From Patescibacteria group bacterium (GTDB lineage Bacteria; Patescibacteriota; Minisyncoccia; 2-02-FULL-40-12; GWA2-44-9): DNA of 53,489 nucleotides. Position numbers and translations under genes: made by a program. The stretch spans positions 1 through 53,489 of the forward strand of contig JBBUGO010000005.1 in assembly GCA_038056025.1 (NCBI GenBank), read 5' to 3'. The notes under the pieces are model-generated. The model saw nothing but the letters and a program-made list of their open reading frames with translations. It was not told the origin of the DNA and searched no databases. This document shows positions 1,213 to 50,222 of the stretch, in pieces (position 1 is the stretch's first letter; each line of letters opens with the position of its first letter).

Positions 1213-1539
1213 CTAAGGACCCGCTACGACTACAACTGTGACCGCGAGCATGTACACGACGGCACTTGTTATCAGGAAGCACAGACCGAAGACGAGTCCG
1301 TCGAATGTTCCCCCGACCCATCCACGCATCTCTTCTTCTGGCGTCGTTTCCAGCCGATCCGGCCTCTTGACCGGAAAGAGAGTCATAAGCAGGATGAGAA
1401 GCCAGATGCATACGAAAACGATTTTCGGTGTCGAAAAAATCGCAGTTGCGATGCCCGACAGGGCTCCATACCCGGAGCCGAAGCCGAATCCCCAGAGAAT
1501 CGAAAGGGGAGCGGTCCGAAATCTTTCTAGGAGCTTCAT
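1213..1539 (-). CDS. Small membrane protein (108 aa), SD-led cassette gene
   Basis: GGAGGGAGG lies directly upstream of the ATG. Hydrophobic segments are present. It starts 8 nt after the stop of the upstream ORF, in a locally GC-richer patch. Confidence 0.6.
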   Translation of the reverse strand: MKLLERFRTAPLSILWGFGFGSGYGALSGIATAIFSTPKIVFVCIWLLILLMTLFPVKRPDRLETTPEEEMRGWVGGTFDGLVFGLCFLITSAVVYMLAVTVVVVAGP

Positions 1540-1547
1540 CCTCCCTC

Positions 1548-1895
1548 CTAGCGCTTGAACGTAAGGCCGGGCAGAAGGCCGGGCCAGACGAGATTGCTCA
1601 TCAGGGTGAATGTTAGGAACAGGGAGTAACTGACCACAACAGCTCCGACGAGCACCGCTCGCTTCTGTTGCACTGAAACCGCGTTGTAGCTCTGTTCGTG
1701 GTGGTAGCGATACATCACCCAGAACGCGGGAGCGGTGAAACAGAGCAGAAAGCCAACCACGAACGTCAGGGCACTTGCCGCAGTGAGCGAGGTGACTGCG
1801 AGACCGGTTACGAACCCAACGAGGTTCCCTTCGTGGAGATCTTCGCGGTTGCGCAGTCGCATCTGGAAGAACTCCACTTGCAACGTTCGAAACAT
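1548..1895 (-). CDS. Small membrane protein (about 115 aa), SD-led cassette gene
   Basis: The ORF track gives 1548..1922. I prefer the internal ATG at 1895 (MFRTLQ...) because AAGGAGG sits 5 nt upstream. It has 3 hydrophobic segments. Confidence 0.55.
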   Translation of the reverse strand: MFRTLQVEFFQMRLRNREDLHEGNLVGFVTGLAVTSLTAASALTFVVGFLLCFTAPAFWVMYRYHHEQSYNAVSVQQKRAVLVGAVVVSYSLFLTFTLMSNLVWPGLLPGLTFKR

Positions 1896-1939
1896 ACCCA
1901 CCTCCTTGCCTATATTATACATTCCTCCTCTATAAATGT

Positions 1940-1963
1940 AAAGACCCCGATATCGGGGTCTTT
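1940..1963. terminator. Palindromic stem-loop downstream of efp
   Basis: The sequence is AAAGACCCCGATATCGGGGTCTTT, a perfect palindrome flanked by A/T runs. It lies between the efp 3' end and the start of the next minus-strand gene. Confidence 0.6.
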
Positions 1964-2096: not shown

Positions 2097-2672
2097 CTAC
2101 CTGTTTTTTCCCGCGCGTTCTACGTATTCACCAGTCGCTGTGTTTACCACGACCACATCGCCCTCATTGATAAACAGGGGAGCGTTAATTGATGCGCCAG
2201 TATCGAGTTTCACCTGCTTTACGCCGCCTTGGGCAGTGTCGCCGCGAATGGCGGGAGGTGCCTCGACAACTTTGAATTCCATTTTTACGGGTAAATCCAC
2301 ATTAATAACGGCATCGTTAAACAGCATTGCCTCGAGAGTCGTATTCGGCTTAAGAAAATGCACCTGATCCCCGATAACTTCTTTGGAGAGTTCGAATCGC
2401 TTAGACGGATCGTTCGGATCAATAAACCAGTACTCATCACGATGAGCGTAGAGGAATTTTACCGGCTTCTTGACGATGTCGGCCTCTTCAAACACATCAG
2501 ATTGTGCAAAGTTGCGTTCAAGCATCTTGCCGTTCAGGAGATTGCGCATTTTGGTCTGCACAACCGGCCGGCGCTGCTGCATTTTTAAATGATGCGTCTC
2601 TAAAACCATATAGGGCTGGTCTTCGTAGATGAAATATGTTTTTGGCTTAAGTTGATTGACGGTAATAGACAT
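2097..2672 (-). CDS. efp: Translation elongation factor P
   Basis: The 191-aa ORF aligns full-length by eye to EF-P (YMVLE..., GDTAQGGVKQVKLDTGASINAPLFINEGDVVVVNTATGEYVERA). Confidence 0.95.
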   Translation of the reverse strand: MSITVNQLKPKTYFIYEDQPYMVLETHHLKMQQRRPVVQTKMRNLLNGKMLERNFAQSDVFEEADIVKKPVKFLYAHRDEYWFIDPNDPSKRFELSKEVIGDQVHFLKPNTTLEAMLFNDAVINVDLPVKMEFKVVEAPPAIRGDTAQGGVKQVKLDTGASINAPLFINEGDVVVVNTATGEYVERAGKNR

Positions 2673-2719
2673 AGCAAGTAGAAATTATAACAGAATTTAT
2701 AGGAATTGCAATATTTGTT

Positions 2720-2838: not shown

Positions 2839-3073
2839 AACGAACACTGGTCCGTAAAAAACAAGAAGCCCCACACGGTATAAGCTGTGGGGCTTCTGAG
2901 TGGCAGGGCGCAGAAAGTGAGAGACTAATCGGGGGTGAATAGGGCAACAAGCCCTATCACCAACAAACCAGTCGTTGCCACGATCCAAGCCACAAACCGT
3001 ATCTTTTCGCGCATGCTCATCTAACTCCTCCAGTATGCTAATCATAGCACCAATAGATGTTCTTGTCAATCCT

Positions 3074-9439: not shown

Positions 9440-9482
9440 TTTTCTAAAATATTGCTAGTATTACGTCAATAGGGAGGTAGCA

Positions 9483-9812
9483 ATGGCAATTTGTGGCGCG
9501 TTACGATCGATGCCTGTCGTAGAGCACTGCATCGGTTGCGCTGAAAATAGCCCTAACAGGCTACAGCAACGGCAGAAGCGCCAAGGAGTGTTCTTTCAAG
9601 CGGATATCGGATCTCGGGCTGTGCGAGATCGTCTTCTCAGAATCCTTCGGCGGATTCAACCCGAGTTGACTCAGGAGGCAATCGAGATTCACGAAGATAG
9701 CGAGACTGACGGATGGTCCGTGCGTCTCTACGCGTGTCTGGAACACGCACTGCAGTTGCGGGGGGTCCGGATGGCTATCGAAGAACACAACAGGGAGCTT
9801 TTCCTTTCGTGA
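9483..9812 (+). CDS. Hypothetical protein (109 aa), SD-led cassette gene
   Basis: GGGAGG lies 5 nt upstream of the ATG. A strong terminator hairpin immediately follows, which supports the plus frame over the antisense ORF 9561..9821. Confidence 0.55.
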   Translation: MAICGALRSMPVVEHCIGCAENSPNRLQQRQKRQGVFFQADIGSRAVRDRLLRILRRIQPELTQEAIEIHEDSETDGWSVRLYACLEHALQLRGVRMAIEEHNRELFLS

Positions 9813-9855
9813 GGCGCTCACAAATCTACATCGTGAGCGCCTCGTCTTTCTTTAT
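9811..9855 (+). terminator. Rho-independent terminator
   Basis: GAGGCGCTCAC-aaatctacatc-GTGAGCGCCTC (11-bp stem) followed by GTCTTTCTTTAT. Confidence 0.75.
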
Positions 9856-9861
9856 GGGAAT

Positions 9862-12954: not shown

Positions 12955-12966
12955 TACTTAAGCGCA

Positions 12967-13075: not shown

Positions 13076-13082
13076 GAGCGGT

Positions 13083-14015: not shown

Positions 14016-14028
14016 CATGCCAAGCGCA

Positions 14029-14189: not shown

Positions 14190-14648
14190 CTATGCACTGC
14201 GGGCCTGGACGATCACTTTAATCTTGGCTCGGACATCGGGGGCACATACGAGTTCTACGATGTGCTCTCCCACACTTTTAATCGCGTGTTCGTGGAGTTG
14301 GATCATGGCAGGATCAATGCGGTATCCCGTAGTACGCTTGAGTTCTTTGGCAATTTCTTCGCGATTCACGGCCGCAAAGAGTGTCCCCTGTTCCGTAGCA
14401 CGCTCTGCGAGAGTTACCGCGGAGTTATTGACGGCATCCGCAAGTTTCATGGCTTCGGCATGCTCCAGCGCGGTAACATGATCCATTTGCTTGCGAAGCC
14501 CTTCTGATATTTTCTCCGCATCCGCAGTTGCCAGACGCGCCAACCCCTTGGCGACCAAAAAGTTGCGAGCGTAGCCATCCGCAACGTTCTTGATATCCCC
14601 CATGCTACCGATACCCCTGACATTTTTGAGTAAAATAACCTTTGCCAT
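14190..14648 (-). CDS. rplI: Ribosomal protein bL9
   Basis: [31 protein letters not shown] is the canonical L9 N-terminus. I take the start at 14648; the ORF track extends to 14660. Confidence 0.9.
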
Positions 14649-14649
14649 A

Positions 14650-15885
14650 TTAGAGATCATTCACTACTTCTATCGCTTTATCAAGCTGGGGATCTTTGCC
14701 CGATTCGCCGATAACAATGGTATCCGCATCGGTCGCCTTGGGGTCAATGGTAATTTCCACATCCGGCACAATCCCCTTTTCCGATATGGAAACACCTGCG
14801 GGCGTAAGCCATTTGGCAATCGTGACTTTCAGGGAAGAACCGTCAGAGAATTTTTCAAGTTCTTGCACGGACCCCTTGCCAAACGTCTTTTCTCCGATGA
14901 GTTTAACGGCGCGGTTGTCATGGAGCGCCCCTGCAAGAATTTCGGAAGCGGACGCGGAACCGTCATTAATGAGAATGACGGTAGGGTATTTTTTTAGTTC
15001 CGCATCCCCTGTGGTGCGAAACTCATTGCGTTCTCCGTCTCCAAACACTTCGGTCGTGACTAAGCTATTATGATCGAGAAACCATCCGCTTAATTCAATG
15101 GCTGAATCCAAGAGTCCCCCGGGGTTATTGCGGAGGTCAACGATGATACGATCAGCACTGGAACGAAGAATCTCTTTGGCCGCTTTTTCAAACTCTGTGT
15201 CAACATTTTGGTTGAAGGTCGTGATGTCTACATACGCGATATGTCCATCCATCATTTTCCAGGTAACCGCAGGCACCTTAATAACTTCTCGTGTGAGCGT
15301 TACATCGCGGGAGATATCGTCGCCATTCCGTACAATGGTGATGGTAACTCTCGTTCCCCGCGGTCCACGAATGAAGCCGACTGCCTCTTCCACGGTAAGG
15401 TTTTCGGTTGATTTATCATCAATCTTCAATATGACATCCCCCGACTGGATGCCTGCGCGATAGGCGGGGGTATCCTTGATGGGCGCAATTACCGTGAGCA
15501 TATTATTGCGCTTGCCTATTTCCATCCCTACGCCGCTGAATGATCCGGAAATTTCCTCCTGGAACTTTTTGCTCAACTTGGGCTCAAAAAATACGGTATA
15601 CGGGTCGCCAATGCTGTTGACCATACCGCTGATGGCTCCGTAGACCATTTTCTGCATGCTGATGTCGCCTTTTTCAACATATTTTTTATTGAGAGAATCC
15701 CATACCTGCCAAAAAAGTCCGAAGTCAATGTTCTTCGGCTGGCCGTACTCTTTGTTAAAGAGCGTCTGGAGCCCAAACTCCCCATCGGTAACGCGGTAAT
15801 TCGCAAACCAAAAACCGCTGCCAAATCCAACGACCAGGGCAACGAGAACGACTATCGTAAGAATGCGCGTGTTACGCGGTTCCAT
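14650..15885 (-). CDS. S41 C-terminal processing peptidase (Ctp/Prc-like) with a PDZ domain
   Basis: N-terminal TM helix, PDZ segment ([13 protein letters not shown]), and S41 motifs NPGGLL and GSASASEI. Confidence 0.9.
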
Positions 15886-16705
15886 GGTGAGCGTAGCTGG
15901 GACGAGCGGTAGAAAAACCGTACTTTAAAAAATAGCGAATCCCGTCCATAAGGTGCCAGCGAGATTCGCGCTGCATAATGATATCAAAAATGCCGAAACG
16001 TCCTTTAGATTGACGGCGGTGATAGTGGTACATTTGCGCATGAGGAAAGTAGGTAACTGCGTAGCCATTTTCCCAAAATCGGCGCGCCCAGTCAACTTCG
16101 GAAAAATAGTGAAACATGCGTTCGTCCATGAGGCCAACTCGTTGTACTGCGGCTCGGCTAGTCATAAGCGCAGACCCCATAAGCCAATCGACGGGTATCG
16201 TTTTGCTTAAATCTGCATCCCGCATTAAAAATCTATTCAGGATGCGGTTTGCAAAAGGAAGATGGTTAACGCGGCGATAAAGAATGGTAAAGATGGAGTA
16301 AAAGCGGAAACACGATTGTTGCCGCGTGCCATTGAAATCAAGCAGCTGCGGTCCGAGAAGGCCGACTTGCGGATGGGCAACGAGATATTCGTAGAGACGC
16401 TTCACCGACCCTTTTGTAATCATGGCATCTGGGTTGAGAATGAGAAAGTGATCGCCACTGCTTTTGCGCATACCCTCGTTGTTGCCTCTTGTATAGCCGG
16501 TGTTTTCGCGATACGGCACGAGGGTAATTTTTTTGAAGAGAGTGGTAAACTCTTCACGAACGACATTTTGGGTTTCAACACTGGTTTGTGAATCGACTAC
16601 GACGACTTCATAGTCAAAGTGCGGAGAGAGTTCCCGTACAAGAGATCCGAGACATAAGCGCAGAAGCGCCGGATTTTTATAATTGACAATAACAATGGAG
16701 AGCAT
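15872..16705 (-). CDS. Family 2 glycosyltransferase
   Basis: N-terminus LSIVIVNYKN, then VVVDSQTS and LNPD, which match the GT-A DxD-type layout. Confidence 0.85.
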   Translation of the reverse strand: MLSIVIVNYKNPALLRLCLGSLVRELSPHFDYEVVVVDSQTSVETQNVVREEFTTLFKKITLVPYRENTGYTRGNNEGMRKSSGDHFLILNPDAMITKGSVKRLYEYLVAHPQVGLLGPQLLDFNGTRQQSCFRFYSIFTILYRRVNHLPFANRILNRFLMRDADLSKTIPVDWLMGSALMTSRAAVQRVGLMDERMFHYFSEVDWARRFWENGYAVTYFPHAQMYHYHRRQSKGRFGIFDIIMQRESRWHLMDGIRYFLKYGFSTARPSYAHHGTA

Positions 16706-16706
16706 A

Positions 16707-17741
16707 TTAGAGCAATGAATCTTTAAACAGTTTTTTCAACTCGCTGAACGAATCCCCTTTCGGCAACAATACGTAGGCGCCATTGATGTAGGTGTCATAG
16801 AGGAGGTTGTCGGTGGTAATAACTTCTCGCCGTATCGTTGCCGGGGAAAGGTTTTGCGCTAAATCAAGCAGCGAGTTAATATCAAAAATATCAATATCGG
16901 TGGTTACATCGCTCTTAATAGCAGTCACCATTTCTAGCGCTCGGACAGGATTGGTCAAAAGATTGAGCGACTGAATTTTATTTTTCAGAGCTATGATGAC
17001 CTGTTGTTGCCGCCGCGCACGGTCAAAATCGCTGGTTGAATAGCGCGAGCGCACATAGTAGAGCGCCGTTTGGCCGTCCAGATGATTTTGCCCTGCCGGA
17101 AGCGAAAAGGTGTAACCCCATTGCGTTGTTTCCTCAAAGGGCTTTTCGAGCGTCACATCAATGCCGTCAACCGCATCAACGATGTGTTGGAAGGCCTCAA
17201 AGTCAAATATCACAATGTTATCGATATAGACGCCCGTGACCCTCGAAAGGAGCAGTCGCGTTCCCTTGAGTCCCAGATATTCATAGGCGGTATTTACTCT
17301 CCCGCTATGCTTCGAGTTGATACGAATATAGAGATCGCGCGGAATAGAAACCAACGATGCGTGGTTCGTCGCTTTATCAAAGCTCAACAGCATCATCGTA
17401 TCGGAGAGGAGTCCTCCGTCAGGGTCTTCTTTACCGCGAACCCCGAGGATAAGGATGTCGGTTCGATTCGGCTCTGCTTTTGGCAACACATATTGCGGGT
17501 CGTCCGTAATATCTTTTGCGATGGGGAGTGCGCGCGCAATAGAACTCCATAAAGAACCCCGCGTGTTTTTGGCCGTCGATGGTTGGCTATCTACTACAAT
17601 CGCCTTTCTTGCAGAAAGCTGGGCAAAGTAGTTTGCGGCGCTTATCGCGAGAATAAGTACGAGCATAAGCCCCGCTACGCGGAGCCAGGGACGCTTATGA
17701 AATTGATATTCTTGAGAATTGAAATTAATTTGCCGGAACAT
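16707..17741 (-). CDS. LytR-CpsA-Psr (LCP) family cell-envelope polymer transferase
   Basis: N-terminal TM helix plus DTMMLLSFD, SIPRDLYI and NTAY motifs. Confidence 0.9.
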   Translation of the reverse strand: MFRQINFNSQEYQFHKRPWLRVAGLMLVLILAISAANYFAQLSARKAIVVDSQPSTAKNTRGSLWSSIARALPIAKDITDDPQYVLPKAEPNRTDILILGVRGKEDPDGGLLSDTMMLLSFDKATNHASLVSIPRDLYIRINSKHSGRVNTAYEYLGLKGTRLLLSRVTGVYIDNIVIFDFEAFQHIVDAVDGIDVTLEKPFEETTQWGYTFSLPAGQNHLDGQTALYYVRSRYSTSDFDRARRQQQVIIALKNKIQSLNLLTNPVRALEMVTAIKSDVTTDIDIFDINSLLDLAQNLSPATIRREVITTDNLLYDTYINGAYVLLPKGDSFSELKKLFKDSLL

Positions 17742-18780
17742 GAGATGATTGTCGAAACCACTTACCCATTTCGCGCGGCGGAACTGTCGCCTTCGCCATC
17801 ACCAGCTGACGGCGATGCCACATGCGCGGCAGGAGGCGCAAAAACCGTCCGCACTCGAGGAATACTTTTGGCTCAACTAGAAGGGTATAAAAAAATACTC
17901 CCACTTCCCGCGCCAGAATCCATGGCATATCTCCCAGAATATTCAGTATATAGTCGTTTTTGATGATTGTAAAACGCACATTAGACCAGTCCCAGCGTCG
18001 TTTTTGCAGAGGTATCCTGCGCCGGACAGCCACCCGTTTGAGGACGTCTCCGAAAGAATGCGCAGCTCCCTTGGTTGTGGAGCGGTCATGCCATGCCACC
18101 ACATTCGGCGCATAGATTTGCTTCCAGCCAAAAAGATGCATCCGCCATCCCATATCGAGATCGTCGCCGTACCAAAAATAATCAGGGTCAGCAATGCGAC
18201 CCTCGATACGAATATCTTCCAATGCTTCCCGCCGGAATAATGGTGCGGCCCCCTCGGCGGCAAACAGTTCCCGCTGACGCGCGTACTGCGGCGCATCTGC
18301 TTGGCCGTGGCCGATGTTAACTACTTTTCGCGACCGCGTAAGTGCAAACCCGCAGGTATCAAGGGTGGTGGTAGTACGTTCTGCGCCGCCATCCCATTGA
18401 TACATTTTTGATTGAAGGGCCCCGATACGCGCATCGGACTCCATCACGGGTATCGCACGGGTAATAAAATCTTTATCAAGCACCACATCCGCAGAAAGCG
18501 CAAGGACATATTTCCCCTTGGTGCGGGACAGCAAATAATCCTGGCCGAGCCACATACCCACATTCTTCCCATGGACGTTTAGTGTCGCTTGCGGAAATTC
18601 TTTCTGAATAATCTCGCACGTAGCATCGGTAGAGGCGTTATCTAATACCACTACCTCCAGTGTGGGATACGTCTGGGCATAGACCCTTCGCAAGCAATCT
18701 CGTACATACGATTGCCCGTTGTGGACGACGATTTGAATGGACACGAGCGGATTATTCATGGTGAGCAGCAACGAGGGCAA
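17725..18780 (-). CDS. Family 2 glycosyltransferase (rhamnosyltransferase-like)
   Basis: VSIQIVVHNG...VVVLDNASTD, with a C-terminal extension. It overlaps both neighbouring genes. Confidence 0.85.
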   Translation of the reverse strand: MPSLLLTMNNPLVSIQIVVHNGQSYVRDCLRRVYAQTYPTLEVVVLDNASTDATCEIIQKEFPQATLNVHGKNVGMWLGQDYLLSRTKGKYVLALSADVVLDKDFITRAIPVMESDARIGALQSKMYQWDGGAERTTTTLDTCGFALTRSRKVVNIGHGQADAPQYARQRELFAAEGAAPLFRREALEDIRIEGRIADPDYFWYGDDLDMGWRMHLFGWKQIYAPNVVAWHDRSTTKGAAHSFGDVLKRVAVRRRIPLQKRRWDWSNVRFTIIKNDYILNILGDMPWILAREVGVFFYTLLVEPKVFLECGRFLRLLPRMWHRRQLVMAKATVPPREMGKWFRQSSHVPAN

Positions 18781-20299
18781 CGGTGGTTACGAACAAGAGA
18801 AATGCACGTTCATCAAACAGCGCCACATCGGTGAGCGAGTAAAGAAAAATCCACGGTACATACAAAAGCGCCGATCCATAATAAACCAGAAGTATCGGAT
18901 CGTTTTCTTTGAGATAGCTGCGGTAGGTTGTTGCTAAGAGTTGCCACATTAGCCACAGCACAAGACACAGCGCCGGAATGCCCATCTCTGCGGCAATCTG
19001 GAGATAGATATTGTGCGCGGATGATCCCGCACGCGCGAGGAAGAGGTCCTCTCCCAACACAACCGGAAAATTACCGATGCCAATACCCAAGAGCGGGTGC
19101 TGCACAATGGACGTTAGCGATGCTTTCCAAATTAGAATACGCAGGGCATTGGACGTCTCGCCAAAATTAAGAATGGATTTGAGACGATCTCCGAAAAGGA
19201 GAAAATTCCCTTTGGCAACCAGAAACTGCGGCGATACAAATATCGGGTAGGCCACCGTAAACAAGAAAAAGAACAGCACAAGATAGAGCGCGAGATATTT
19301 GAAAACTTGCGTATGTCGATGGTCAGCCGATTTTTTTAATTTCCATAGCAACAGGAACGCTCCACCGACCACACCGATGCTCGCCGCCCAAATGCCCCGC
19401 GTGCCGCTTAAAATGGCGATGAGAAAACCGAGCGGCACCCACACAATCAAAAATCGTGCGCGGCGCCGTATCATTTGTGACACAACGGTGGTAGCAGTAA
19501 TGATGTGGCCAAGCGACAGCGCCAGAATCGCCGGAACGCCGAGAAGGACGAACTGCGGAAATGAATGGGAATCTGGAAAAAGAGAAAATACCCTTAACGA
19601 AAGCTGATCGCCATAGTAGGCAAACCACGTATTCCCTACTTCTGCGACGATAGAAGCCCAGACCGTGCCGAATTGCCGCAACTGAATCCCCTCCCCCCAG
19701 ATACCGACAAACTGATAAATATCCAAGGCATAAGTGGAAGCAAGCTGAATAAACCCGACCACGATCACGGTAATCGTGGGAAGAGCAATAGCAACGATGG
19801 TACGCGGTATCAACGATTGGTTTCGTGATGCAAGATTGTAGAGCACGACACCGATAAAGGAAAGGTTGAGAAAATAAATAATCCGTTTAATCGCCAGCGT
19901 GCTATCAGAGCTCACTACAGTGGAGAGAATCGCCAGCAGCAGTACGACAAGGAGTGCGGTAATCACGGGGTGTTCTAGATGCCAGCGGGTATGGCGCCGC
20001 ATAACAAGTGCGATGTGTTCGCGGAGTATCGTTAATGTTTCGCGCTGGAGCAGCCAACGAACAAAAATAATAAGCGATATCACCCGCCACGTATTGAAGT
20101 TATCGAATGTTGCCGTCAGCGGCAACGCAAGGAATAGTGGAATAGATGAAATAAATAGCAATACTGCTTCTTCTAGCGGCAGAAGTATTGCCCCAAGAGC
20201 GAGTCCGGCAGCGAGTACCAGTGATATTGAACGGGGTAAGATACCCGTGACAATGAGAATGAATATAACGAGCTCGGTAATAAAAATCTTCTTTCTCAT
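18752..20299 (-). CDS. O-antigen ligase/polymerase-like (Wzy_C) polytopic membrane protein
   Basis: At least 10 hydrophobic helices, with a periplasmic-loop motif GSSAHNIYLQIAAEMGIPAL. Confidence 0.8.
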   Translation of the reverse strand: MRKKIFITELVIFILIVTGILPRSISLVLAAGLALGAILLPLEEAVLLFISSIPLFLALPLTATFDNFNTWRVISLIIFVRWLLQRETLTILREHIALVMRRHTRWHLEHPVITALLVVLLLAILSTVVSSDSTLAIKRIIYFLNLSFIGVVLYNLASRNQSLIPRTIVAIALPTITVIVVGFIQLASTYALDIYQFVGIWGEGIQLRQFGTVWASIVAEVGNTWFAYYGDQLSLRVFSLFPDSHSFPQFVLLGVPAILALSLGHIITATTVVSQMIRRRARFLIVWVPLGFLIAILSGTRGIWAASIGVVGGAFLLLWKLKKSADHRHTQVFKYLALYLVLFFFLFTVAYPIFVSPQFLVAKGNFLLFGDRLKSILNFGETSNALRILIWKASLTSIVQHPLLGIGIGNFPVVLGEDLFLARAGSSAHNIYLQIAAEMGIPALCLVLWLMWQLLATTYRSYLKENDPILLVYYGSALLYVPWIFLYSLTDVALFDERAFLLFVTTVALVAAHHE

Positions 20300-22408: not shown

Positions 22409-22440
22409 AGCAGAGTATATTGAACCACGAATTTGTCTCT

Positions 22441-22484
22441 CTGAAAAGAAAGAGGCCCCCAACGAATGAGGATTGGCGGCCTCT
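22441..22484 (-). terminator. Terminator of the 22505..23176 cassette
   Basis: On the minus strand the stem AGAGGCC...GGCCTCT is followed by TTTCTTTCTTTTCAG. Confidence 0.55.
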
Positions 22485-22504
22485 TCCGTGAGGACCTTCT
22501 TGGC

Positions 22505-23176: not shown

Positions 23177-23330
23177 AACGGACCCTCCTTAAGGGTTGTG
23201 CCAGCGGACCACCAAAATGGCAGTCATAGCCACAGGCCGCCGATAGTGTTTTCGTTCGGAAGCTTGGGGCTACGACCGCCGATTAACTACAAAAGTTCTA
23301 GATCTAGTGTACCACAAGTTAAACGCGAGG

Positions 23331-28082: not shown

Positions 28083-28106
28083 AAGCCCGGGAAAAGTTCC
28101 GGGCTT
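28083..28106. terminator. Bidirectional stem-loop between convergent genes
   Basis: AAGCCCGG-gaaaagtt-CCGGGCTT, with flanking A/T runs. Confidence 0.7.
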
Positions 28107-28126
28107 GCAGTGGTAACCGCGTAATC

Positions 28127-28498: not shown

Positions 28499-28536
28499 TC
28501 ATCCCTCCCTCACTTTTTCGCATTTCTGACTTTCTT

Positions 28537-35150: not shown

Positions 35151-35179
35151 TTGACTTAACATATAGAAAGGAGTATAAT
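35151..35179 (+). promoter_or_regulatory. Near-consensus sigma-70 promoter
   Basis: TTGACT (35151-35156), a 17-nt spacer, then TATAAT (35174-35179). It lies 21 nt upstream of the ATG at 35201, with AAGGAGG in between. Confidence 0.65.
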
Positions 35180-35200
35180 AATAGGTGTAAGGAGGTGGTT

Positions 35201-35320
35201 ATGGTGCCATTCGTGATCATAGGTCTCGTCACGGCTGGGATCCTCGCTACCATCTACGGCGGAACCTGGGCCGTCATGAGATGGCTCGATCGATGCGAAG
35301 CTCGTGAAAAGGAGGAGTAA
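35201..35320 (+). CDS. Small hydrophobic peptide (39 aa)
   Basis: MVPFVIIGLVTAGILATIYGGTWAVMRWLDRCEAREKEE. AAGGAGG lies 5 nt upstream. It is in frame with the tail of the spurious track ORF 34892..35320. Confidence 0.55.
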   Translation: MVPFVIIGLVTAGILATIYGGTWAVMRWLDRCEAREKEE

Positions 35321-35475
35321 TGGAAGTAGTTCTCTTGTCCATCGTGGTCACTATCGTAGTGGGGATCGCCAACCCTCCGATCCCCCACAGGATCACGATG
35401 AAGATCTGCAAGTTCCTCGACGCATGCGCCCCGCGCGTCCAGGTCAAGGAGGGCCTCCCCCCGTCAAAGCACTGA
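35320..35475 (+). CDS. Small hydrophobic peptide (51 aa), translationally coupled
   Basis: MEVVLLSIVVTIVVGIANPPIPHRITMKICKFLDACAPRVQVKEGLPPSKH. It has a TAATG stop/start overlap, AAGGAGG 4 nt upstream, and its stop codon lies inside the terminator stem. Confidence 0.5.
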   Translation: MEVVLLSIVVTIVVGIANPPIPHRITMKICKFLDACAPRVQVKEGLPPSKH

Positions 35476-35492
35476 CGGGGGTCGTACTTTTT
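35458..35492 (+). terminator. Rho-independent terminator
   Basis: CCCCCGTCA-aagcac-TGACGGGGG followed by TCGTACTTTTT. Confidence 0.75.
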
Positions 35493-37707: not shown

Positions 37708-37813
37708 CCTTTCATACTTTACCTAAAAAGACCCTTGAAAACAACGGGCTTGTTTGACGATGCTATTCTTTTGCGCCATGATATTGCATCGCTGCTCACC
37801 TTAAGGAGGAAAG

Positions 37814-38215
37814 GTGGAACAAGACAACCGGAAGAAGTTCGCTGCCGTTCGTGCGATACTCGTCGCGAGGCGTGCGATCATCATGGAGAGGGCGCATACC
37901 CTTCTCCATGAACTCCGCGAAAAGAATCCCTCCTGCGACGGCTTGAAGGACGGGTTCGATGATCCGCAGGTCTTGTTGATGATTGCTGGGCACGACAAGA
38001 TCGAACTCCGGCGCATCAACGAGGCACTCATGGCCATCGATCACGGCACAACGTACGGGACATGCAGGATGTGCGGTGGGCACATTTCCATCGCACGGCT
38101 CAAGGCAGTCCCGTTCGCGGAGAAGTGCCTGTCATGCAAGAAGGCCGAGGAGGAGGCCTTGGAGGTTCTCTTCATGACCCCCTTCGGGACCGCTAGCAGG
38201 AGGGTCACCGCTTAA
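37814..38215 (+). CDS. DksA/TraR-family C4 zinc-finger protein (133 aa), SD-led cassette gene
   Basis: GTG start with AAGGAGG 4 nt upstream. CRMCGGHISIARLKAVPFAEKCLSCK provides C-x2-C-x17-C-x2-C after a coiled-coil-like region. Confidence 0.7.
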   Translation: MEQDNRKKFAAVRAILVARRAIIMERAHTLLHELREKNPSCDGLKDGFDDPQVLLMIAGHDKIELRRINEALMAIDHGTTYGTCRMCGGHISIARLKAVPFAEKCLSCKKAEEEALEVLFMTPFGTASRRVTA

Positions 38216-38245
38216 GAAAAACCCTCTCGGAGGAATTAAAACGAA

Positions 38246-38288
38246 AAAGGCCGCCCGCGCCACGCGCAGACGGCCTTTCCCTTTTGTA
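38246..38288. terminator. Bidirectional stem-loop between convergent genes
   Basis: AAAGGCCG-cccgcgccacgcgcaga-CGGCCTTT followed by CCCTTTTG. Confidence 0.65.
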
Positions 38289-40513: not shown

Positions 40514-40543
40514 TTGACTTTTAGGCAAATAAACCTCTATTAT
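40514..40543 (+). promoter_or_regulatory. Putative sigma-70 promoter of the 40562 cassette
   Basis: TTGACT (40514-40519), an 18-nt spacer, then TATTAT (40538-40543), followed by AGGAGGG. Confidence 0.5.
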
Positions 40544-40561
40544 TCAATCAGGAGGGAAGCT

Positions 40562-40930
40562 GTGGAGATTTTTCTTCTTACGCTCTCGCAATTCGATGTG
40601 GGTTTCGACGAAATATACAGGTATGTCGTTATGGCAAGTGACGTTAAGCAAGCGAGGAGACTGTGTAGTAAGCGTGCTCGTGAGGACTATCTCAAAAAAT
40701 TTTGGATAGATCCCAAGCACTCAACGTGCAGAAGACTCGGTACTCCCGCTAGTTTCGGTAAACGAGCCAGAATCATTAGTACCGCACGTACAGCCCCGCC
40801 CATTTCGTCTGTGACCACCTACTACGAGTATCCAGCCGTGGTGCGCGAGGGCAACGGATGGGCATATCCAGGTCTAAGATTCGTGAGGTCAACTCCCTGG
40901 GATGGGATGCACTTCCGGAGGCGTGACTAG
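40562..40930 (+). CDS. Hypothetical protein (122 aa), SD-led cassette gene
   Basis: GTG start with AGGAGGG 5 nt upstream, in frame with track ORF 40346..40930. A strong terminator follows. No motif recognised. Confidence 0.5.
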   Translation: MEIFLLTLSQFDVGFDEIYRYVVMASDVKQARRLCSKRAREDYLKKFWIDPKHSTCRRLGTPASFGKRARIISTARTAPPISSVTTYYEYPAVVREGNGWAYPGLRFVRSTPWDGMHFRRRD

Positions 40931-40959
40931 GGCGAGACTTCGGTCTCGCCTTTCGCTTT
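40931..40959 (+). terminator. Rho-independent terminator
   Basis: GGCGAGAC-ttcg-GTCTCGCC followed by TTTCGCTTT. Confidence 0.8.
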
Positions 40960-40983
40960 ATATACAACCAACTAATGTGCGTC

Positions 40984-41102: not shown

Positions 41103-41105
41103 GAC

Positions 41106-42638: not shown

Positions 42639-42746
42639 GGTTAATAATAAGTAAGTGCATGGCTAGCGCTTCCGCCCGGGGCGGACATCGTTAGTAATCA
42701 CCGACAACGTTATGTGGCTACTATACCACCTTTTATAGAAATAGAA

Positions 42747-42775
42747 AGCCCGGGCTCTGAAACGAAGAGCCCGGG
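42747..42775 (-). terminator. Terminator of the small cassette upstream of rny
   Basis: GCCCGGGCTCT-gaaacga-AGAGCCCGGGC. On the minus strand it is followed by a T-rich run. Confidence 0.75.
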
Positions 42776-42807
42776 CCTGCGTCAGGATCCTAACGAACTG
42801 CGCGTCG

Positions 42808-42975
42808 CTAGTTCAGCTTCCTTCCGTCCCGTGGAACCGTCTTGGGCGGGTTGGTGACGCTCACCGCCTGCCCCGTCGCAGTGGTGGCTTGCACTGCACT
42901 TCCCTTGGGTGGGATGTGGGCCATCGTGTTTCGATAGCCAGGCGGAAAAGAAGTGAAACTCTCGACTCGTAACAT
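42808..42975 (-). CDS. Small hypothetical protein (55 aa), SD-led; frame uncertain
   Basis: GGGAGG lies 6 nt upstream of the ATG at 42975 (MLRVESFTSFPPGY...). The alternative track ORF 42782..42991 starts inside the SD and has no SD of its own. Confidence 0.4.
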   Translation of the reverse strand: MLRVESFTSFPPGYRNTMAHIPPKGSAVQATTATGQAVSVTNPPKTVPRDGRKLN

Positions 42976-43145
42976 GCTGTTCCTCCCTCATACACAGGCA
43001 TGCGCAGTTATCGGTGACCCATGCCAGTATCTAGCTAGAACACTGTGCACAGGCAAGGAACGTCTTCCATCCCATTGTATCAAAATACGACTTTTAAATC
43101 AACGCCGGTATTTTCGCCGACATTTCTATCTGATACAATGCGGAT

Positions 43146-44692: not shown

Positions 44693-45760
44693 TTATACGA
44701 TAATCCCTCCGCCAAGCACTTCGTCGTTGTGATAAAAGACCACGGATTGGCCGGGGGTAATAGCGCGCTGGGGTTTAGTAAAGATAATACTCTTGCCGCG
44801 GAAGCGCGCAGGCGCATCGGGAGTGCGATAGCGAATTTTTGCGCTTATGGCACTCGGGCGAAATGTGCGGTGGATAAAATGGAGATCGGTGAGCATGGCA
44901 GTCCGGCCAAGTAAATCTCTTTCTTTTCCAACAATGATCACGTTGCGTCCGACGTCTTTTGCTACCACATAGTAGGGTCCCCCAGCAATGCCAAGATGAA
45001 GCCCATGGCGCTGACCAATAGTGTAGTAGGGTGCGCCATCATGCTCACCGAGTTTACGTCCGTCAACATGCACTACTTCACCCTTACGAGCGGGAACGTG
45101 GCGCATGAGGAATGACTTCATATCGAGCGGACCAATAAAGCACACGCCCTGACTGTCTTTTTTACTGGCAACCGGCAGTTTCAACTTTCGCGCCAATGTC
45201 CGCACTTGCGGTTTTGTATAATCACCGATAGGAAAAAATGTCTTTGCGAGTTGGGCTTGTGTCAGTGTCCAGAGAAAATAGGTCTGATCTTTATTGCGAT
45301 CTACCGCCCGCAGCAGTTTGCTTGGAGCTTGTTGCTTGGAGCTTGTTGCTCGCGCGTGTTGCACACGCGCGTAGTGTCCGGTAGCAATATAATCCGCACC
45401 CTCCTTGAGGGCTTTGCGCAGGAAAAGCCCGAATTTAATTTCTTTATTGCACATGACATCTGGATTCGGAGTAACGCCGCGGCGATACGCGTCAATCATG
45501 TAGTGAGCCACCGACTGGCCGTATGCTTTGGAAAAATCCCATGTCAAAAGAGGAATATCCAGTACTGCGGCGACGCGCAGAGCGTCCTGCCGATCCTGTT
45601 CCCACAGGCATGTCACACCCGGTTCCTGCCACGGTTTCATGAATACACCGACGACACGAAATCCTTGTTGTTTGAGTAATGCCGCCGCCACAGAGGAATC
45701 CACACCTCCCGACATAGCAACATACACCGTTGATTGTTTCTTGGATTGCATAAAAGACAC
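44693..45760 (-). CDS. mnmA: tRNA 2-thiouridine(34) synthase MnmA
   Basis: The PP-loop is VAMSGGVDSSVAA. NPDVMCN and KDQTYFL are present. Confidence 0.95.
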   Translation of the reverse strand: MSFMQSKKQSTVYVAMSGGVDSSVAAALLKQQGFRVVGVFMKPWQEPGVTCLWEQDRQDALRVAAVLDIPLLTWDFSKAYGQSVAHYMIDAYRRGVTPNPDVMCNKEIKFGLFLRKALKEGADYIATGHYARVQHARATSSKQQAPSKLLRAVDRNKDQTYFLWTLTQAQLAKTFFPIGDYTKPQVRTLARKLKLPVASKKDSQGVCFIGPLDMKSFLMRHVPARKGEVVHVDGRKLGEHDGAPYYTIGQRHGLHLGIAGGPYYVVAKDVGRNVIIVGKERDLLGRTAMLTDLHFIHRTFRPSAISAKIRYRTPDAPARFRGKSIIFTKPQRAITPGQSVVFYHNDEVLGGGIIV

Positions 45761-45767
45761 AGGGACC

Positions 45768-45792
45768 CGTCGAAGGTCCCTGTCGTGCAGGT
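45768..45792 (-). terminator. Terminator of the 45796..46032 cassette
   Basis: ACAGGGACC-cgtcgaa-GGTCCCTGT. On the minus strand it is followed by CTTTT. Confidence 0.7.
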
Positions 45793-45795
45793 TCT

Positions 45796-46032
45796 CTACT
45801 TTTGATGTGCCCCTGCAACGCGCTCCAGTTCCTCCGCCTTGCGTTCCAGCGCCATCTGGTGCTTAAGCGTCCCCAGGACTTCCTGCTCGAGCCTCACGCG
45901 CAGGCGACGCTCGATTTCTTGCTCGCGATGGAGCCGGCAGGCGTAGTACACGGACACCCCCGCCACCAACATCGCCAGAAGAATAAGCCCCCTGAAAACG
46001 TTCGCCCACAGCCGGATTTCCCTCGTTGTCAT
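45796..46032 (-). CDS. Small membrane-anchored coiled-coil protein (78 aa), SD-led cassette gene
   Basis: AGGAGGGGGAG lies directly upstream of the ATG. The TM helix GLILLAMLVAGVSVYYA is followed by a charged helical tail. Confidence 0.6.
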   Translation of the reverse strand: MTTREIRLWANVFRGLILLAMLVAGVSVYYACRLHREQEIERRLRVRLEQEVLGTLKHQMALERKAEELERVAGAHQK

Positions 46033-46069
46033 CTCCCCCTCCTATTGCTATAGTATACAAGTTAATTGA

Positions 46070-46726
46070 GTGCTCGTCAAAATGCTTGAATTCATCGATC
46101 TTGAAGGGCTTATTACCACTGCGGGCTACCTCGGTATTTTTGGGATTGTCTTTGCCGAATCGGGGCTTTTTTTCGGTTTTTTTCTTCCGGGAGACAGTTT
46201 ACTGTTCACCGCAGGAGTGCTCGCATCGCAGGGATATCTCAATATTGTCACGCTTGTGGTAATAACGTTTCTCGGAGCGGTACTCGGCGATAGCTTCGGA
46301 TATTACTTTGGCAGCCATGTCGGTCCGCGGATCTTTACTCGCGAAGATTCCCTCCTATTCCATCGTGAGCATATCAACCGCGCCCAGCGATTCTATGAAC
46401 AACATGGGGCTATCACGATTGTTCTTGCTCGCTTTATGCCTTTTATTCGCACCTTTGCCCCTATTTTGGCGGGAGTGGGCAAGATGCGTTATTCGGTCTT
46501 TCTTTCCTATAATCTCATCGGCGGATTTCTCTGGGGCGTTGTTATCCCCTCTCTGGGATATTTTCTTGGCACCGTTATCCCCAGCATTGATCGTTATCTG
46601 TGGCCCATCATCGCCTTTATTATCTTCTCCTCGATGTTCCCGGGCATCATTGATATCCTTCGCCATCCCCAAAGTCGTCGTAAGGTATCAGATATGATAA
46701 AGCGCGTATTTGCACGTCAATCTTGA
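46070..46726 (+). CDS. DedA-family membrane protein
   Basis: FAESGLFFGFFLPGDSLLFTAG and RFMPFIRTFAPILAG are present. The start could be 46070 or the ATG at 46082. Confidence 0.85.
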   Translation: MLVKMLEFIDLEGLITTAGYLGIFGIVFAESGLFFGFFLPGDSLLFTAGVLASQGYLNIVTLVVITFLGAVLGDSFGYYFGSHVGPRIFTREDSLLFHREHINRAQRFYEQHGAITIVLARFMPFIRTFAPILAGVGKMRYSVFLSYNLIGGFLWGVVIPSLGYFLGTVIPSIDRYLWPIIAFIIFSSMFPGIIDILRHPQSRRKVSDMIKRVFARQS

Positions 46727-47965: not shown

Positions 47966-47970
47966 CTATC

Positions 47971-49905
47971 ATGCGCCATTTTCTGCGCCGCGTTCCTGCG
48001 TGGGCAATCTCATTGCTCATACCATTCATCGTGCTCGGCGCCTCGTTGCTGGGGTTGTTTGGACTCACCCAAGAACGCTTCACTGATTTTCTTTTCACTC
48101 GCCAGGATCCATTGGCTGATGTGGTTATTGTTGAAATCGATGAGCAGTCAATCACAACGGTTGGCCAGTGGCCATGGCCACGCCAAGTATTCGGTCGGTT
48201 AGTTACCAAGCTGTCTCATGCTTCAGTCATCGGCATTGACGTTAACTTCAAGGAGCCCTCTCGGTTGGGAAATACTGACGATGAATCGTTCGCGCGTGCG
48301 CTACGGTCCACTGCAACACCTATCGTACTCACCGCAGAAGCGCAACCAGACGGTTCCTTCAGCCATCCCATTGCCCCTTTTCGATCCATCGCACTTGAAG
48401 GATTCCCCAATCTCGTGATTGGCAAGGACGGTATCGCTCGCGTTATCCGCCTCTCGCGCGGAGCATTCCCCAGTTTTTCACTCGCCATCGCACAACAGTA
48501 TGCCCATACGATCAACGCAACGGTTACGTTGCCTCCTGTGGAGCCGACGCGTATTCATTTTTACGGCCCTAACCGCACGTTCAGTCACATTTCTGTCATT
48601 GATATTCTCCAAAATAAAATTCCAGATACATTTATCAGAGGCAAGATCGTGCTCATCGGCGCAACGGCATCTGATCTGCAGGATTACCACCTCACGCCCT
48701 TTGATAAAACGAGCGGCGTAGAAATCCAGGCAACCATCGTCTCAACCATTCTTCAACAGAAGTACTTTTCGCAGGTGCCCATCTGGTCGTATCTCGCCAT
48801 TATTCTTCTCGGCATCGTAGCAGTCATCTTCACCGTGTACATTGAGAGTATCACCCGCATCATCATCGCCTTGCTGGGGTTGTTTGGACTCTACACTATC
48901 GGCGCATTTATCTTGTTTGATAACTTTATCATTTTGGATATCTTCTTTCCCAACATTGCGCTGATAGGAAGCGCCGTGGTATCCGTTGCCGCACAGTATG
49001 TCACCGCCAATCAAGAAAAACGGTTTATCCGCGAGACATTCTCCCGCTATCTTGCTCCGCAGGTTATTCAGGAGCTCATGCAGGATCCTTCCAAGATCAA
49101 ACTCGGCGGACAGAAATCAACACTCTCTATTTTATTTTCCGACATTAGAAGCTTCACTACGCTCTCCGAAAAAATGACTCCGGAGCGCCTCACACAATTC
49201 TTGAACCGGTATTTAAGCACGATGACTGATATTGTGCTCGAGCACACCGGGGTGATTGATAAATACATCGGTGACGCCATCATGGCATTTTGGGGAGCGC
49301 CCCTGGAAAACCCAAACCATGCGCACGATGCGGTAACAAGCGCGTTGGCGATGATCGCTGCATTGAAAAAATTCAATGAGCACAATCAACGCCATGGAGA
49401 GCCCGCCATTGATATTGGCATTGGCATCAACTCGGGAGACGTTACGGTGGGCAACATGGGTTCAGAGAAACGATTTGATTATACCGTGATGGGCGACAAT
49501 GTGAATCTCGCATCGCGCCTCGAGGGGCTCACCAAAGAATATGGGGTAAATATCATCATCAGCGGTGCCACCGCTACCCTTCTCGCCAACAAAACTGCAG
49601 GATCTCGTTTCCTCCTGCGTGAGATCGATCGTGTGCAGGTCAAGGGCAAGCAACAGGGCGTCACGATCTTTCAGGTTGTTGCCCAACATAAACGGCAAAC
49701 CGTTCAAACGCTCTGGGATGATTTTGAACATGCGCGCGAGCACTACTATGCCGGCCGCTGGGACGACGCCATTGCGTTATTTGAAAAAATTCTCCAGCAC
49801 GTTCCCGCCGATGGTCCCAGCAAAACACTCCTGGCGCGATCCCGCGAACTGCAAGCCCATCCTCCCACTGATTGGCAAGGCGTGTATCAGATGACCCATA
49901 AATAG
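47971..49905 (+). CDS. CHASE2 sensor-domain class III adenylate/guanylate cyclase
   Basis: CHASE2 (IVEIDEQSITTVGQWPWPR), then 3 TM helices, then the cyclase core (LSILFSDIRSFTTLSE, GDAIMAFWGAP, YTVMGDNVNLASRLEG). It starts 5 nt after the FecR gene stop. Confidence 0.9.
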   Translation: MRHFLRRVPAWAISLLIPFIVLGASLLGLFGLTQERFTDFLFTRQDPLADVVIVEIDEQSITTVGQWPWPRQVFGRLVTKLSHASVIGIDVNFKEPSRLGNTDDESFARALRSTATPIVLTAEAQPDGSFSHPIAPFRSIALEGFPNLVIGKDGIARVIRLSRGAFPSFSLAIAQQYAHTINATVTLPPVEPTRIHFYGPNRTFSHISVIDILQNKIPDTFIRGKIVLIGATASDLQDYHLTPFDKTSGVEIQATIVSTILQQKYFSQVPIWSYLAIILLGIVAVIFTVYIESITRIIIALLGLFGLYTIGAFILFDNFIILDIFFPNIALIGSAVVSVAAQYVTANQEKRFIRETFSRYLAPQVIQELMQDPSKIKLGGQKSTLSILFSDIRSFTTLSEKMTPERLTQFLNRYLSTMTDIVLEHTGVIDKYIGDAIMAFWGAPLENPNHAHDAVTSALAMIAALKKFNEHNQRHGEPAIDIGIGINSGDVTVGNMGSEKRFDYTVMGDNVNLASRLEGLTKEYGVNIIISGATATLLANKTAGSRFLLREIDRVQVKGKQQGVTIFQVVAQHKRQTVQTLWDDFEHAREHYYAGRWDDAIALFEKILQHVPADGPSKTLLARSRELQAHPPTDWQGVYQMTHK

Positions 49906-49955
49906 AAAAGGAGGCCTACGGTCTCCCTTTCCTCCTTTTCCCCCCTTTCTTCGTG

Positions 49956-50222
49956 TCACGAGGCAACACGATGTTCGTCAGGCACCGGTTGGTGCTGGCG
50001 CTGGAACGCCTTCTCCAGCCGATCGGTCGCCATCTTCTTCATTGCTCTCTTCTGTGGGTCAGTCAGCGGCGTCAGATCTCGGTTGCACAGAACTCTTCTG
50101 TCTCGGTACACCCAGCGATACTCCTCTCCGCCGTAGCGAAGCACCAACAGAAGTTGCTCCGTATCCCACAGGACCACTTCGAACGGGAACTCTTGTGGTT
50201 CGAACCTTGCCGCTTCACGCAT
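49956..50222 (-). CDS. Hypothetical protein (88 aa), GC-richer patch
   Basis: It has only a weak AGGA upstream. It reads more protein-like than the overlapping plus ORFs. Confidence 0.45.
   Translation of the reverse strand: MREAARFEPQEFPFEVVLWDTEQLLLVLRYGGEEYRWVYRDRRVLCNRDLTPLTDPQKRAMKKMATDRLEKAFQRQHQPVPDEHRVAS

Follow-up and report, generated by a model that had tools for sequence, protein, structure and literature searches.

Small genes led by Shine-Dalgarno sites among apparently leaderless housekeeping genes of a groundwater Paceibacteria genome

How does a bacterium whose core genes lack Shine-Dalgarno (SD) sites come to carry a scattered minority of small open reading frames (ORFs) that are each led by an intact one? 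The question is raised by a stretch of 53,489 nucleotides (nt) from a Patescibacteria group bacterium (contig JBBUGO010000005.1 of assembly GCA_038056025.1; the window, below), whose source lineage is groundwater Paceibacteria (Patescibacteria/candidate phyla radiation, CPR). Exact protein matches assign it to a metagenome-assembled Patescibacteria genome from Hainich groundwater with locus tags AAB864_*. The window has a G+C content of 49.6% and carries efp, fmt/def, gltX, a cell-envelope glycosyltransferase operon, ddl, mreB, infA, alaS, hup, rny, gpmI and mnmA, together with an rpsM-rpsK-rpsD-rpoA-rplQ-rplM-rpsI block, a CHASE2 cyclase and a type IV secretion system (T4SS) pilin. An earlier note, drawn from the letters of the window alone, had proposed that two translation-initiation regimes coexist here, the SD-led ORFs being either recent acquisitions from a phage, plasmid or host, or a dedicated class of small proteins with another initiation route.

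Our sample comprises ~63 kb of one genome, namely the window and a 10-kb flank (L088) beyond its left end. Among 185,579 species genomes and a metagenome collection, the relatives of its alanyl-tRNA synthetase (AlaRS) are all Paceibacteria/Parcubacteria, and none is closer than 56% identity; 80 relatives (1.23 Mb) were used for counts of start sites, and 160 syntenic loci for the homologue search. The split between two kinds of starts is real, but the picture that emerges has three architectures: leaderless, coupled and SD-led. We somewhat favour the reading that this is a leaderless genome in which most SD-led units have been acquired laterally as moron-like cassettes, next to a few SD-led genes that are native.

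Start sites of the SD-led minority and of the core genes

All eleven starts listed in the earlier note have GGAGG 4-7 nt upstream of an ATG or GTG, and to these can be added one ORF of 31 amino acids (aa) in the window (2925-3020(-)) and two in the flank. GGAGG occurs about as often as expected (111 copies counting both strands, compared with ~104), and what stands out is the placement of the motif: 12-13 ORFs located in the gaps between core genes are GGAGG-led, whereas six control pentamers yield 0-2 each. The consensus is AAGGAGG with a spacing of 4-7 nt in 12/12 cases, which include operon-internal and long-leader ones. All 14 sites are of the intact AAGGAGG type, GGAGA or decayed forms being absent in the window, and SD variants lacking GGAGG (GGAGA, GAGGT, AGGAA and others) yielded no extra gap-located ORFs there. 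When duplex energies are computed against the canonical 16S tail CACCUCCUUU, which may not be this organism's own, they are bimodal: 14 small ORFs range from -9.3 to -15.7 kcal/mol and nothing falls between -9.3 and -4.7. The claim that the core lacks SD sites with the exception of hup was borne out, since of the 53 other genes hup alone is strong (GGGGGTG, -14.6 kcal/mol) and the remaining 52 are at -4.7 or weaker. The secure SD-led set thus consists of 12 small ORFs and hup, or ~19% of the genes. In the flank, two of the 12 genes, encoding a 71-aa transmembrane (TM) protein and a 128-aa lipoprotein-like protein, are SD-led, both by AAGGAGG; dnaJ, dnaK, grpE, hrcA, an Nramp gene and cysS have no SD.

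The SD-led ORFs form ten separate one- or two-gene units that are dispersed among housekeeping operons over 45 kb (Table 1). Promoter-like sites scoring 10-11 out of 12 lie upstream of five of the ten units, and weaker ones upstream of two more. The two promoters proposed earlier, at 35151 and 40514, were confirmed and are joined by three of equal quality at 1942, 3069 and 46080 (before the starts at 1895, 3020 and 46032). Hairpins followed by U tracts are found 3' of nine of the ten units, and all eight terminators of the earlier list fold as G+C-rich hairpins of this kind. The distance from the end of the -10 box to the start is 18-21 nt, leaving a leader of 11-14 nt that begins with the SD. 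At the operon-internal or long-leader starts 1539, 35320, 37814, 42975, 23176 and 28498, the spacing between SD and ATG is kept and no -10 box is nearby, which ties the position of the SD to the start codon rather than to the promoter. The SD-led ORFs also show strong periodicity of G+C over the three codon positions (for example 0.56/0.39/0.83), and this, together with the promoters, SD sites and terminators, shows that they are real coding units.

Three other SD-like cases were set apart. The 37-aa ORF 35943-36056 is doubtful as a gene, because it is carried by a copy of a dispersed repeat. For 38290-38667(-), GGAGG stands 14 nt from the ATG and the case is ambiguous. An internal GGAGG-GTG was rejected as the start of the 613-aa gene next to alaS, whose relatives align from residue 1.

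The core genes have a different organization. At promoter-proximal core genes, a -10 hexamer, often with the extended TGn, ends 5-11 nt upstream of the start (at least 13 starts, among them those of efp, an ABC ATPase gene, gltX, a Pyr_redox gene, an exonuclease gene, ddl, mreB, a PEGA gene, a Gmad2 gene, rny, gpmI and the T4SS pilin gene). The distance from the -10 box to the start peaks at 6 nt in the window, and the 80 relatives show a peak of 85 (6 nt) and 84 (7 nt) occurrences over a background of ~30. Judged from this spacing, the mRNAs of the promoter-proximal core genes appear to be leaderless, which would explain why these genes have no SD. The starts of about 18 core genes inside operons fall between -17 and +7 nt relative to the stop codon before them; these genes have no SD, their duplex energies being -4.2 kcal/mol or weaker. 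Leaderless-type spacing and internal starts that overlap or abut stops are class-wide traits of the Paceibacteria, so that a core without SD sites is no peculiarity of this genome.

We therefore picture three architectures. The promoter-proximal core genes, with their -10 box at 5-11 nt, would give leaderless mRNAs on which an SD is unneeded. The operon-internal core genes would be translated by coupling or by termination-reinitiation at the neighbouring stop. The minority with AAGGAGG 4-7 nt upstream, usually equipped with the short leader and its own sigma-70-type promoter and intrinsic terminator, would make use of the SD.

In addition, rpsI, rpsD, rpsK and rpsM are each preceded by a spacer of 100-300 nt with conserved modules (29220-29365, 31546-31691, 32128-32233 and 32621-32766), in which, on the gene strand, TTTAGAAATTAGATATTAGAAATTAGA-type heptad repeats reach the ATG. 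These spacers may act as a common promoter/leader or as an A/U-rich non-SD element for translation that is restricted to ribosomal protein genes.

Composition, relatives and conservation of the SD-led ORFs

The higher G+C content that had been ascribed to the SD-led ORFs holds when computed: their pooled G+C is 0.550 and their G+C at third codon positions (GC3) 0.639, compared with 0.493 +/- 0.023 and 0.525 +/- 0.039 (maximum 0.596) per core gene. GC3 exceeds the core maximum in nine of the 12 (Mann-Whitney p = 4e-5), and lies below it in 28127-28498, 40562-40930 and, narrowly, 9483-9812 (0.573). A leave-one-out codon-usage test separated 44/44 core genes from 11/12 SD-led ORFs, the exception being 28127-28498; among the held-out genes of the flank, the 71-aa ORF was placed in the SD class and every core gene in the core class. 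The shift is confined to two-fold codons. NNY codons (Y, pyrimidine) end in C in 67% of the cases in SD-led ORFs compared with 39% in the core (p = 4e-15), and AAG use is 77% versus 39%, while the four-fold boxes (Ala, Gly, Pro, Thr) show no shift. The SD class is roughly uniform at ~0.6 GC3, while at two-fold sites the core shows an unusual preference for codons ending in A/T. A simple high-GC donor as the source of the G+C excess is weakened by the four-fold boxes, which are not G+C-enriched. Ribosomal protein genes do not have the codon usage of the SD class, which argues against ordinary expression-linked selection as the cause of the shift. Composition and SD can be uncoupled, since the 88-aa ORF 49956-50222(-) has SD-class codon usage (GC3 0.652) and no SD, but a leaderless-type start with TAGGAT 6 nt before the ATG.

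As had been remarked earlier, most of the SD-led proteins belong to no recognizable family. The single family match is the DksA/TraR zinc finger of 37814-38215, and a DksA-like zinc finger is also the only significant PHROG match. Searches of 5.8e9 and 1.84e9 proteins show that the SD-led ORFs are near-ORFans, three of them having homologues. The protein of 22505-23176 has two homologues with 32-36% identity among the 5.8e9 proteins, and that of 28127-28498 has four remote matches among 1.84e9 representatives; no relatives sharing sequence words were found for 1548-1895 and 37814-38215, and the 115-aa protein of the former has no homologue among the 5.8e9 proteins. Scans of viral contigs with three cassette proteins gave no matches. 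Structure predictions for 22505-23176 and 28127-28498, based on alignments of three sequences, reached mean confidence values (pLDDT) of 51 and 54, which are too low for a fold search. Residues ~22-80 of the 28127-28498 protein recur as 7-9 repeats in two very large proteins of the set of representatives, P0018 (3265 aa) and P0021 (971 aa).

The gene order mnmA-alaS-(613-aa gene)-infA-rpsM...rpsI-(PEGA gene)-mreB is widely conserved in the relatives. In three of them (L008, L018 and L063) alaS and the 613-aa gene are directly adjacent, at a junction where the window carries inserts. This junction can be compared; the ~55% AlaRS identity of the nearest relatives bars the comparison of most other junctions. 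The cassettes within 10 kb of alaS have no homologue in the 160 syntenic loci, one weak DksA-like match excepted. Unrelated SD-led small ORFs occupy the slot after rpsI in six relatives (L008, L018, L028, L031, L040 and L058), so that this slot looks like an accessory-gene hotspot. One protein encoded there is Cys-rich and 79 aa long, with a GC3 of 0.68 versus 0.47 for its locus. In the relatives as a whole, GGAGG-led starts make up 9.4% of the locus-unique ORFs versus 2.9% of the conserved ORFs (odds ratio 3.5, p = 4e-6), the latter being at background level when compared with ~1.6% per control motif. The conserved exceptions are sigma-70 genes (six loci, in relatives whose conserved genes otherwise have no SD) and a ~125-aa family next to alaS; this family, which lies between mnmA and alaS, is consistently SD-led in L028, L033, L042 and L060.

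At least three of the SD-led genes are long-standing residents, with an SD retained in distant relatives. Relative L001, with an HU protein of 63% identity, has exactly the same SD-like AAAGGGGGTGCGA motif upstream of its hup. In L091 and L092, GGAGG or GGAGA stands before the homologues of 28127-28498, and the L091 homologue has the neighbours seen in the window, a PEGA-like gene and mreB, each with a leaderless-type promoter there. In L044, a DksA-like gene with 35% identity lies beside alaS and has TAGGAGAT 4 nt before its ATG. Moreover, 28127-28498 retains a perfect SD together with core-like codons. From these sequence comparisons, we conclude that the SD is probably functional in this lineage.

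This conclusion has to be set beside what is known of the 16S rRNA of the group. According to Tsurumaki et al. (2022; PMC9297842), only 48% of the 16S genes of Parcubacteria contain the anti-SD motif CCTCCT, and that paper infers that SD helices are not formed. The 16S tails that we recovered from three relatives (Table 1) read GGAUGGAACAUCUCCU in two and AACAUUCCU in one, with AACAUUCCU or AACAUCUCCU as the variants listed. The UCUCC variant can still pair with AGGAG(G/A), and it pairs with GGAGG through one G-U pair.

Origin of the SD-led units and neighbouring features

If most SD-led genes are moron-like cassettes, they would form part of the flexible genome: small ORFans, many of them encoding single-pass membrane proteins, in variable slots between syntenic core genes. 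A cassette consisting of promoter, SD, ORF and terminator would be self-contained and could be acquired laterally as such. The use of an SD would then make sense, because a leaderless start needs an exact juxtaposition of promoter and ATG, whereas an SD travels with its ORF and would work from any transcript. A few conserved genes would also use an SD, namely hup, the 28127-28498 family and the DksA/TraR-like gene here, and sigma-70 in relatives. The lateral origin is supported, not proven, by composition, ORFan status and slot variability. The recent acquisition from phage, plasmid or host that the earlier note had proposed stands in part: the codon usage is atypical in 11/12, the proteins are near-ORFans and they are absent from syntenic loci, but no donor, viral relative or integrase was found and the old residents described above do not fit it.

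Several observations weigh against this reading. No donor, viral relative, integrase or shared insertion motif turned up; no 9-mer is common to the flanks of three or more units. Both homologues of 22505-23176 are neither SD-led nor GC3-rich. One codon usage across 11 dispersed ORFs calls for a single unknown gene pool or for a selective cause. The leaderless starts are read from promoter spacing, and for some core genes the start codon is uncertain (GTG at 4550 and 11346). In the tails of the three relatives, CCUCC is replaced by UCUCC or UUCCU; the window and the sampled flank contain no 16S gene, and CCTCCT is found in only 48% of Parcubacteria (PMC9297842). Finally, these ~63 kb are from one genome.

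A selective cause is what the most serious alternative offers, which we consider possible, though clearly on the unlikely side. The SD-led genes would be a native, vertically inherited class of fast-evolving small membrane proteins and regulators whose 30S/SD-dependent initiation is separately controllable, and their codon usage would result from selection, for instance the avoidance of A/T-rich codons in short leadered mRNAs. The SD kept in distant relatives by hup, the 28127-28498 family and the DksA/TraR-like gene, and by sigma-70 in six relatives, is in line with it, as are the uniform promoter-SD-ATG architecture, the restriction of the codon shift to two-fold codons with the four-fold boxes unaffected, and the donor that was not found. 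It is more difficult to reconcile with the ribosomal protein genes, which lack the SD-class codon usage, with the absence of the atypical ORFs from the 160 syntenic loci, with the enrichment of SD-led starts among locus-unique ORFs, and with 49956-50222, which is atypical in its codons yet leaderless-type. The dedicated class with another initiation route suggested by the earlier note is right in part and, taken alone, is not complete.

It is improbable that the SD sites are relics, in which case a usable anti-SD would have been lost, as in part of the Parcubacteria, and the cassettes would be foreign DNA of very recent arrival, with little or no translation. The anti-SD frequency reported for the Parcubacteria (PMC9297842), the altered tails of the three relatives and the composition of the cassettes, which is not ameliorated, would agree with such a loss. 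However, decayed variants are missing among the 14 sites, 28127-28498 keeps its SD despite core-like codons and its homologues have one too, the motif upstream of hup is conserved in L001, and UCUCC still pairs with GGAGG. We regard it as very improbable that the cassettes are pieces of a single prophage, plasmid or genomic island that had integrated. Their small, compositionally atypical proteins of unknown function and the DksA-like PHROG match might suggest this, but there are ten dispersed one- or two-gene insertions among housekeeping operons over 45 kb, the window genes include no integrase, structural gene or tRNA-flanked island, and viral relatives were not found. Hardly any weight is left for an artefact, either ORFs arising by chance in non-coding patches rich in G+C or a chimera made in assembly. 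Several ORFs are indeed very short (31-55 aa) and one SD-like ORF lies inside a repeat; this reading is, however, largely refuted by the GC3 periodicity, the correct SD spacing in 12/12 versus 0-2 per control, the matched promoters and terminators, and the three ORFs with homologues. With respect to the chimera, whose exclusion the earlier note had asked for, independent assemblies from other samples span the cassette junctions with 99.94-100% identity.

Near-identical contigs differ from the window at 13 positions, several of which look like low-coverage errors. Two sister contigs with 5x coverage (L082 and L083) have stop codons in rpoA (30583-30610) and gpmI (43627) that the window does not have; these are probably assembly errors, which makes the contigs unsafe for estimating ratios of nonsynonymous to synonymous substitution rates (dN/dS). 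The product of rpoA (30059-30781(-)) is 240 aa long, having the N-terminal and insert domains and no match to the alpha C-terminal domain, and AlaRS (36037-37707(-)) is 556 aa long; both lengths agree with the aligned spans in relatives. A scan with Rfam found four tRNAs in the window and nothing else.

The window also contains dispersed repeat families that are unrelated to the cassette borders, except for two adjoining copies of an element of ~125 nt. This element occurs in four copies and is closed by a long stem (ATCAGTCCCCGAAAAGG / CCTTTTTGGGGACTGAT) around two inner hairpins, whose pairing is kept through four compensatory changes between copies. The element, which has no Rfam match, looks like a miniature inverted-repeat transposable element (MITE) or a structured small RNA. 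The region 12954-13897, with two unknown ORFs, lies between two direct copies.

Table 1. Positions of the SD-led units, of core start sites and repeats in the window, and of the loci compared in relatives (L, handle of a locus or contig)
Feature	Position (strand)	Details
Two-gene unit	1213..1942 (-)	promoter TTTACA-17-TATAAT 1942-1914
First ORF of 1213..1942	1548-1895 (-)	SD 1901-1905; 115 aa, multi-TM; GC3 0.716
Second ORF of 1213..1942	1213-1539 (-)	SD 1540-1548; 108 aa, multi-TM; GC3 0.615
Single-ORF unit	2860..3069 (-)	promoter TTGACA-17-TGnTATGAT 3069-3041; SD 3027-3031; 31-aa TM ORF 2925-3020; terminator hairpin ~2863-2897; 29-aa ORF here in independent gene calls
Unit	9440..9860 (+)	SD 9473-9477; ORF 9483-9812, 109 aa; GC 0.545, GC3 0.573; 12-bp terminator hairpin 9810-9844 (z = -4.8); abuts leaderless-type promoter of Pyr_redox gene
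Unit	22440..23188 (-)	SD 23184-23188; ORF 22505-23176, 223 aa; GC3 0.638; terminator ~22446-22488
Unit	28083..28508 (-)	SD 28504-28508; ORF 28127-28498, 123 aa; core-like codon usage; terminator 28083-28106; in variable slot downstream of rpsI
Two-gene unit	35151..35481 (+)	promoter TTGACT-17-TATAAT 35151-35179; terminator 35458-35481
First ORF of 35151..35481	35201-35320 (+)	SD 35191-35195; 39 aa, TM; GC3 0.65
Second ORF of 35151..35481	35320-35475 (+)	SD 35311-35315; 51 aa, TM; GC3 0.83
Unit	37754..38281 (+)	weak promoter 37754-37782; SD 37805-37809; ORF 37814-38215, 133 aa, DksA/TraR zinc finger; GC3 0.769; bidirectional terminator 38243-38281
hup	40125-40406 (-)	93 aa; SD-like GGGGGTG 40412-40418, 6 nt upstream of start
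Unit	40514..40955 (+)	promoter TTGACT-18-TATTAT 40514-40543; SD 40551-40555; ORF 40562-40930, 122 aa; terminator 40929-40952, then copy of 125-nt element at 40971-41105
Unit	42746..43102 (-)	candidate promoter 43102-43074; leader ~90 nt; SD 42982-42986; ORF 42808-42975, 55 aa; GC3 0.679; 13-bp terminator 42746-42778
Unit	45759..46080 (-)	promoter TTGACG-17-TATACT 46080-46052; SD 46038-46042; ORF 45796-46032, 78 aa, TM + coiled coil; GC3 0.759; terminator 45759-45783 overlaps mnmA start
efp promoter	2672..2711 (-)	TTGCAA-16-TGnTATAAT; -10 box ends 11 nt before ATG at 2672
Core starts of the same type	4550, 6840, 9877, 11346, 22408, 26867, 27326, 39730, 42638, 43146, 51987	-10 box ends 5-9 nt upstream
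Operon-internal core starts	14190..21393 (-)	seven consecutive genes, -17 to +1 nt from preceding stop, no SD
~125-nt element, four copies	2717-2851(+), 40971-41105(-), 12835-12954(+), 13897-14020(+)	
Second repeat family	14120-14184, 53400-53464 (inverted), 35970-36024, 13053-13079	also 27162-27207 ~ 35933-35978
Post-rpsI slots	L008:17180-17419; L018:18842-19225; L028:19897-20791; L031:19636-20566; L040:20100-20333; L058:18316-19928	
GGAGG-led sigma-70 genes	L005:2573-3808; L045:7910-8530; L048:8720-9646; L054:869-2311; L064:8779-9933; L065:2073-3080	
16S 3' tail	L041:1552-1610	GGAUGGAACAUUCCUAUU
16S 3' tail	L073:1017-1080	GGAUGGAACAUCUCCUAUUU
16S 3' tail	L126:2948-3010	GGAUGGAACAUCUCCUUUU

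Known systems and implications for Patescibacteria

The morons of lambdoid phages consist of a promoter, an ORF and a terminator inserted between genes that are adjacent in related phages, and have a deviant base composition. The SD-led units resemble them in having their own sigma-70-type promoter, a small ORF, a factor-independent terminator and a deviant composition, and, for the junction of alaS and the 613-aa gene, in that the flanking genes are adjacent in some relatives. They differ in being located in a cellular chromosome between housekeeping operons, without phage context and without significant PHROG matches beyond the DksA-like zinc finger. Unlike integron-type or other site-specific cassettes, they share no recombination site or repeat at their borders, the two copies of the ~125-nt element excepted. 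In Bacteroidota, initiation is SD-independent genome-wide, with rare SD-led exceptions such as rpsU. Most genes without SD and a few specific conserved genes with a strong one are also seen here; the core of the window, however, has a leaderless promoter signature in place of the leadered non-SD starts of Bacteroidota, and the SD-led set consists mostly of accessory ORFans.

The organization also recalls the dual leaderless/SD genomes of GeneMarkS-2 group C (PMC6028130), which include Mycobacterium, Deinococcus and most Actinobacteria and in which many first genes of operons have a Pribnow box 6-8 nt from their start, a sign of leaderless transcripts. The -10 box at a fixed short distance from first-in-operon starts and the SD on other genes are common to both. 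In contrast to that group, the operon-internal core genes of the window also lack an SD, the SD-led genes are a ~19% minority that forms a distinct compositional and accessory class, and the lineage is Patescibacteria. The report of anti-SD loss in part of the Parcubacteria (PMC9297842) concerns the same class, and it is matched here by relatives' tails without CCUCC and by the rarity of SD sites in conserved genes of the 80 relatives; unlike what was inferred there, perfect, positionally constrained and partly conserved SD sites persist in a minority of genes. No published description of a leaderless organization or of an SD-led minority in Patescibacteria was found in the paper library that we searched.

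In practical terms, gene finders with a single start model will mis-start or miss CPR genes, and independent annotations of this region do disagree on several starts. In biological terms, the window is an unusually clean natural case in which bimodal SD use correlates with the age or origin of genes, within a class reported to be losing the anti-SD. It opens the question of whether, in leaderless genomes, the SD is a portable signal for the expression of genes exchanged horizontally, and that of whether Patescibacteria ribosomes with altered 16S tails still make use of it. The SD-led small membrane proteins are candidates for functions at the cell surface or in host interaction that are specific to lineages of these episymbiotic bacteria.

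A broader view, which we put forward as a conjecture that may well fail, is that initiation is partitioned by gene class across the Paceibacteria. Core genes would be SD-independent, through leaderless 70S-type initiation and reinitiation, while a flexible pool of small membrane ORFans exchanged between lineages, together with a handful of global regulators (HU, sigma-70 and DksA/TraR-like proteins), would depend on a retained SD/anti-SD interaction. If true, the accessory and regulatory set could be tuned apart from the core, for instance via the availability of 30S subunits, initiation factors or changes in the 16S tail, and this would take place in a lineage whose anti-SD is visibly degenerating.

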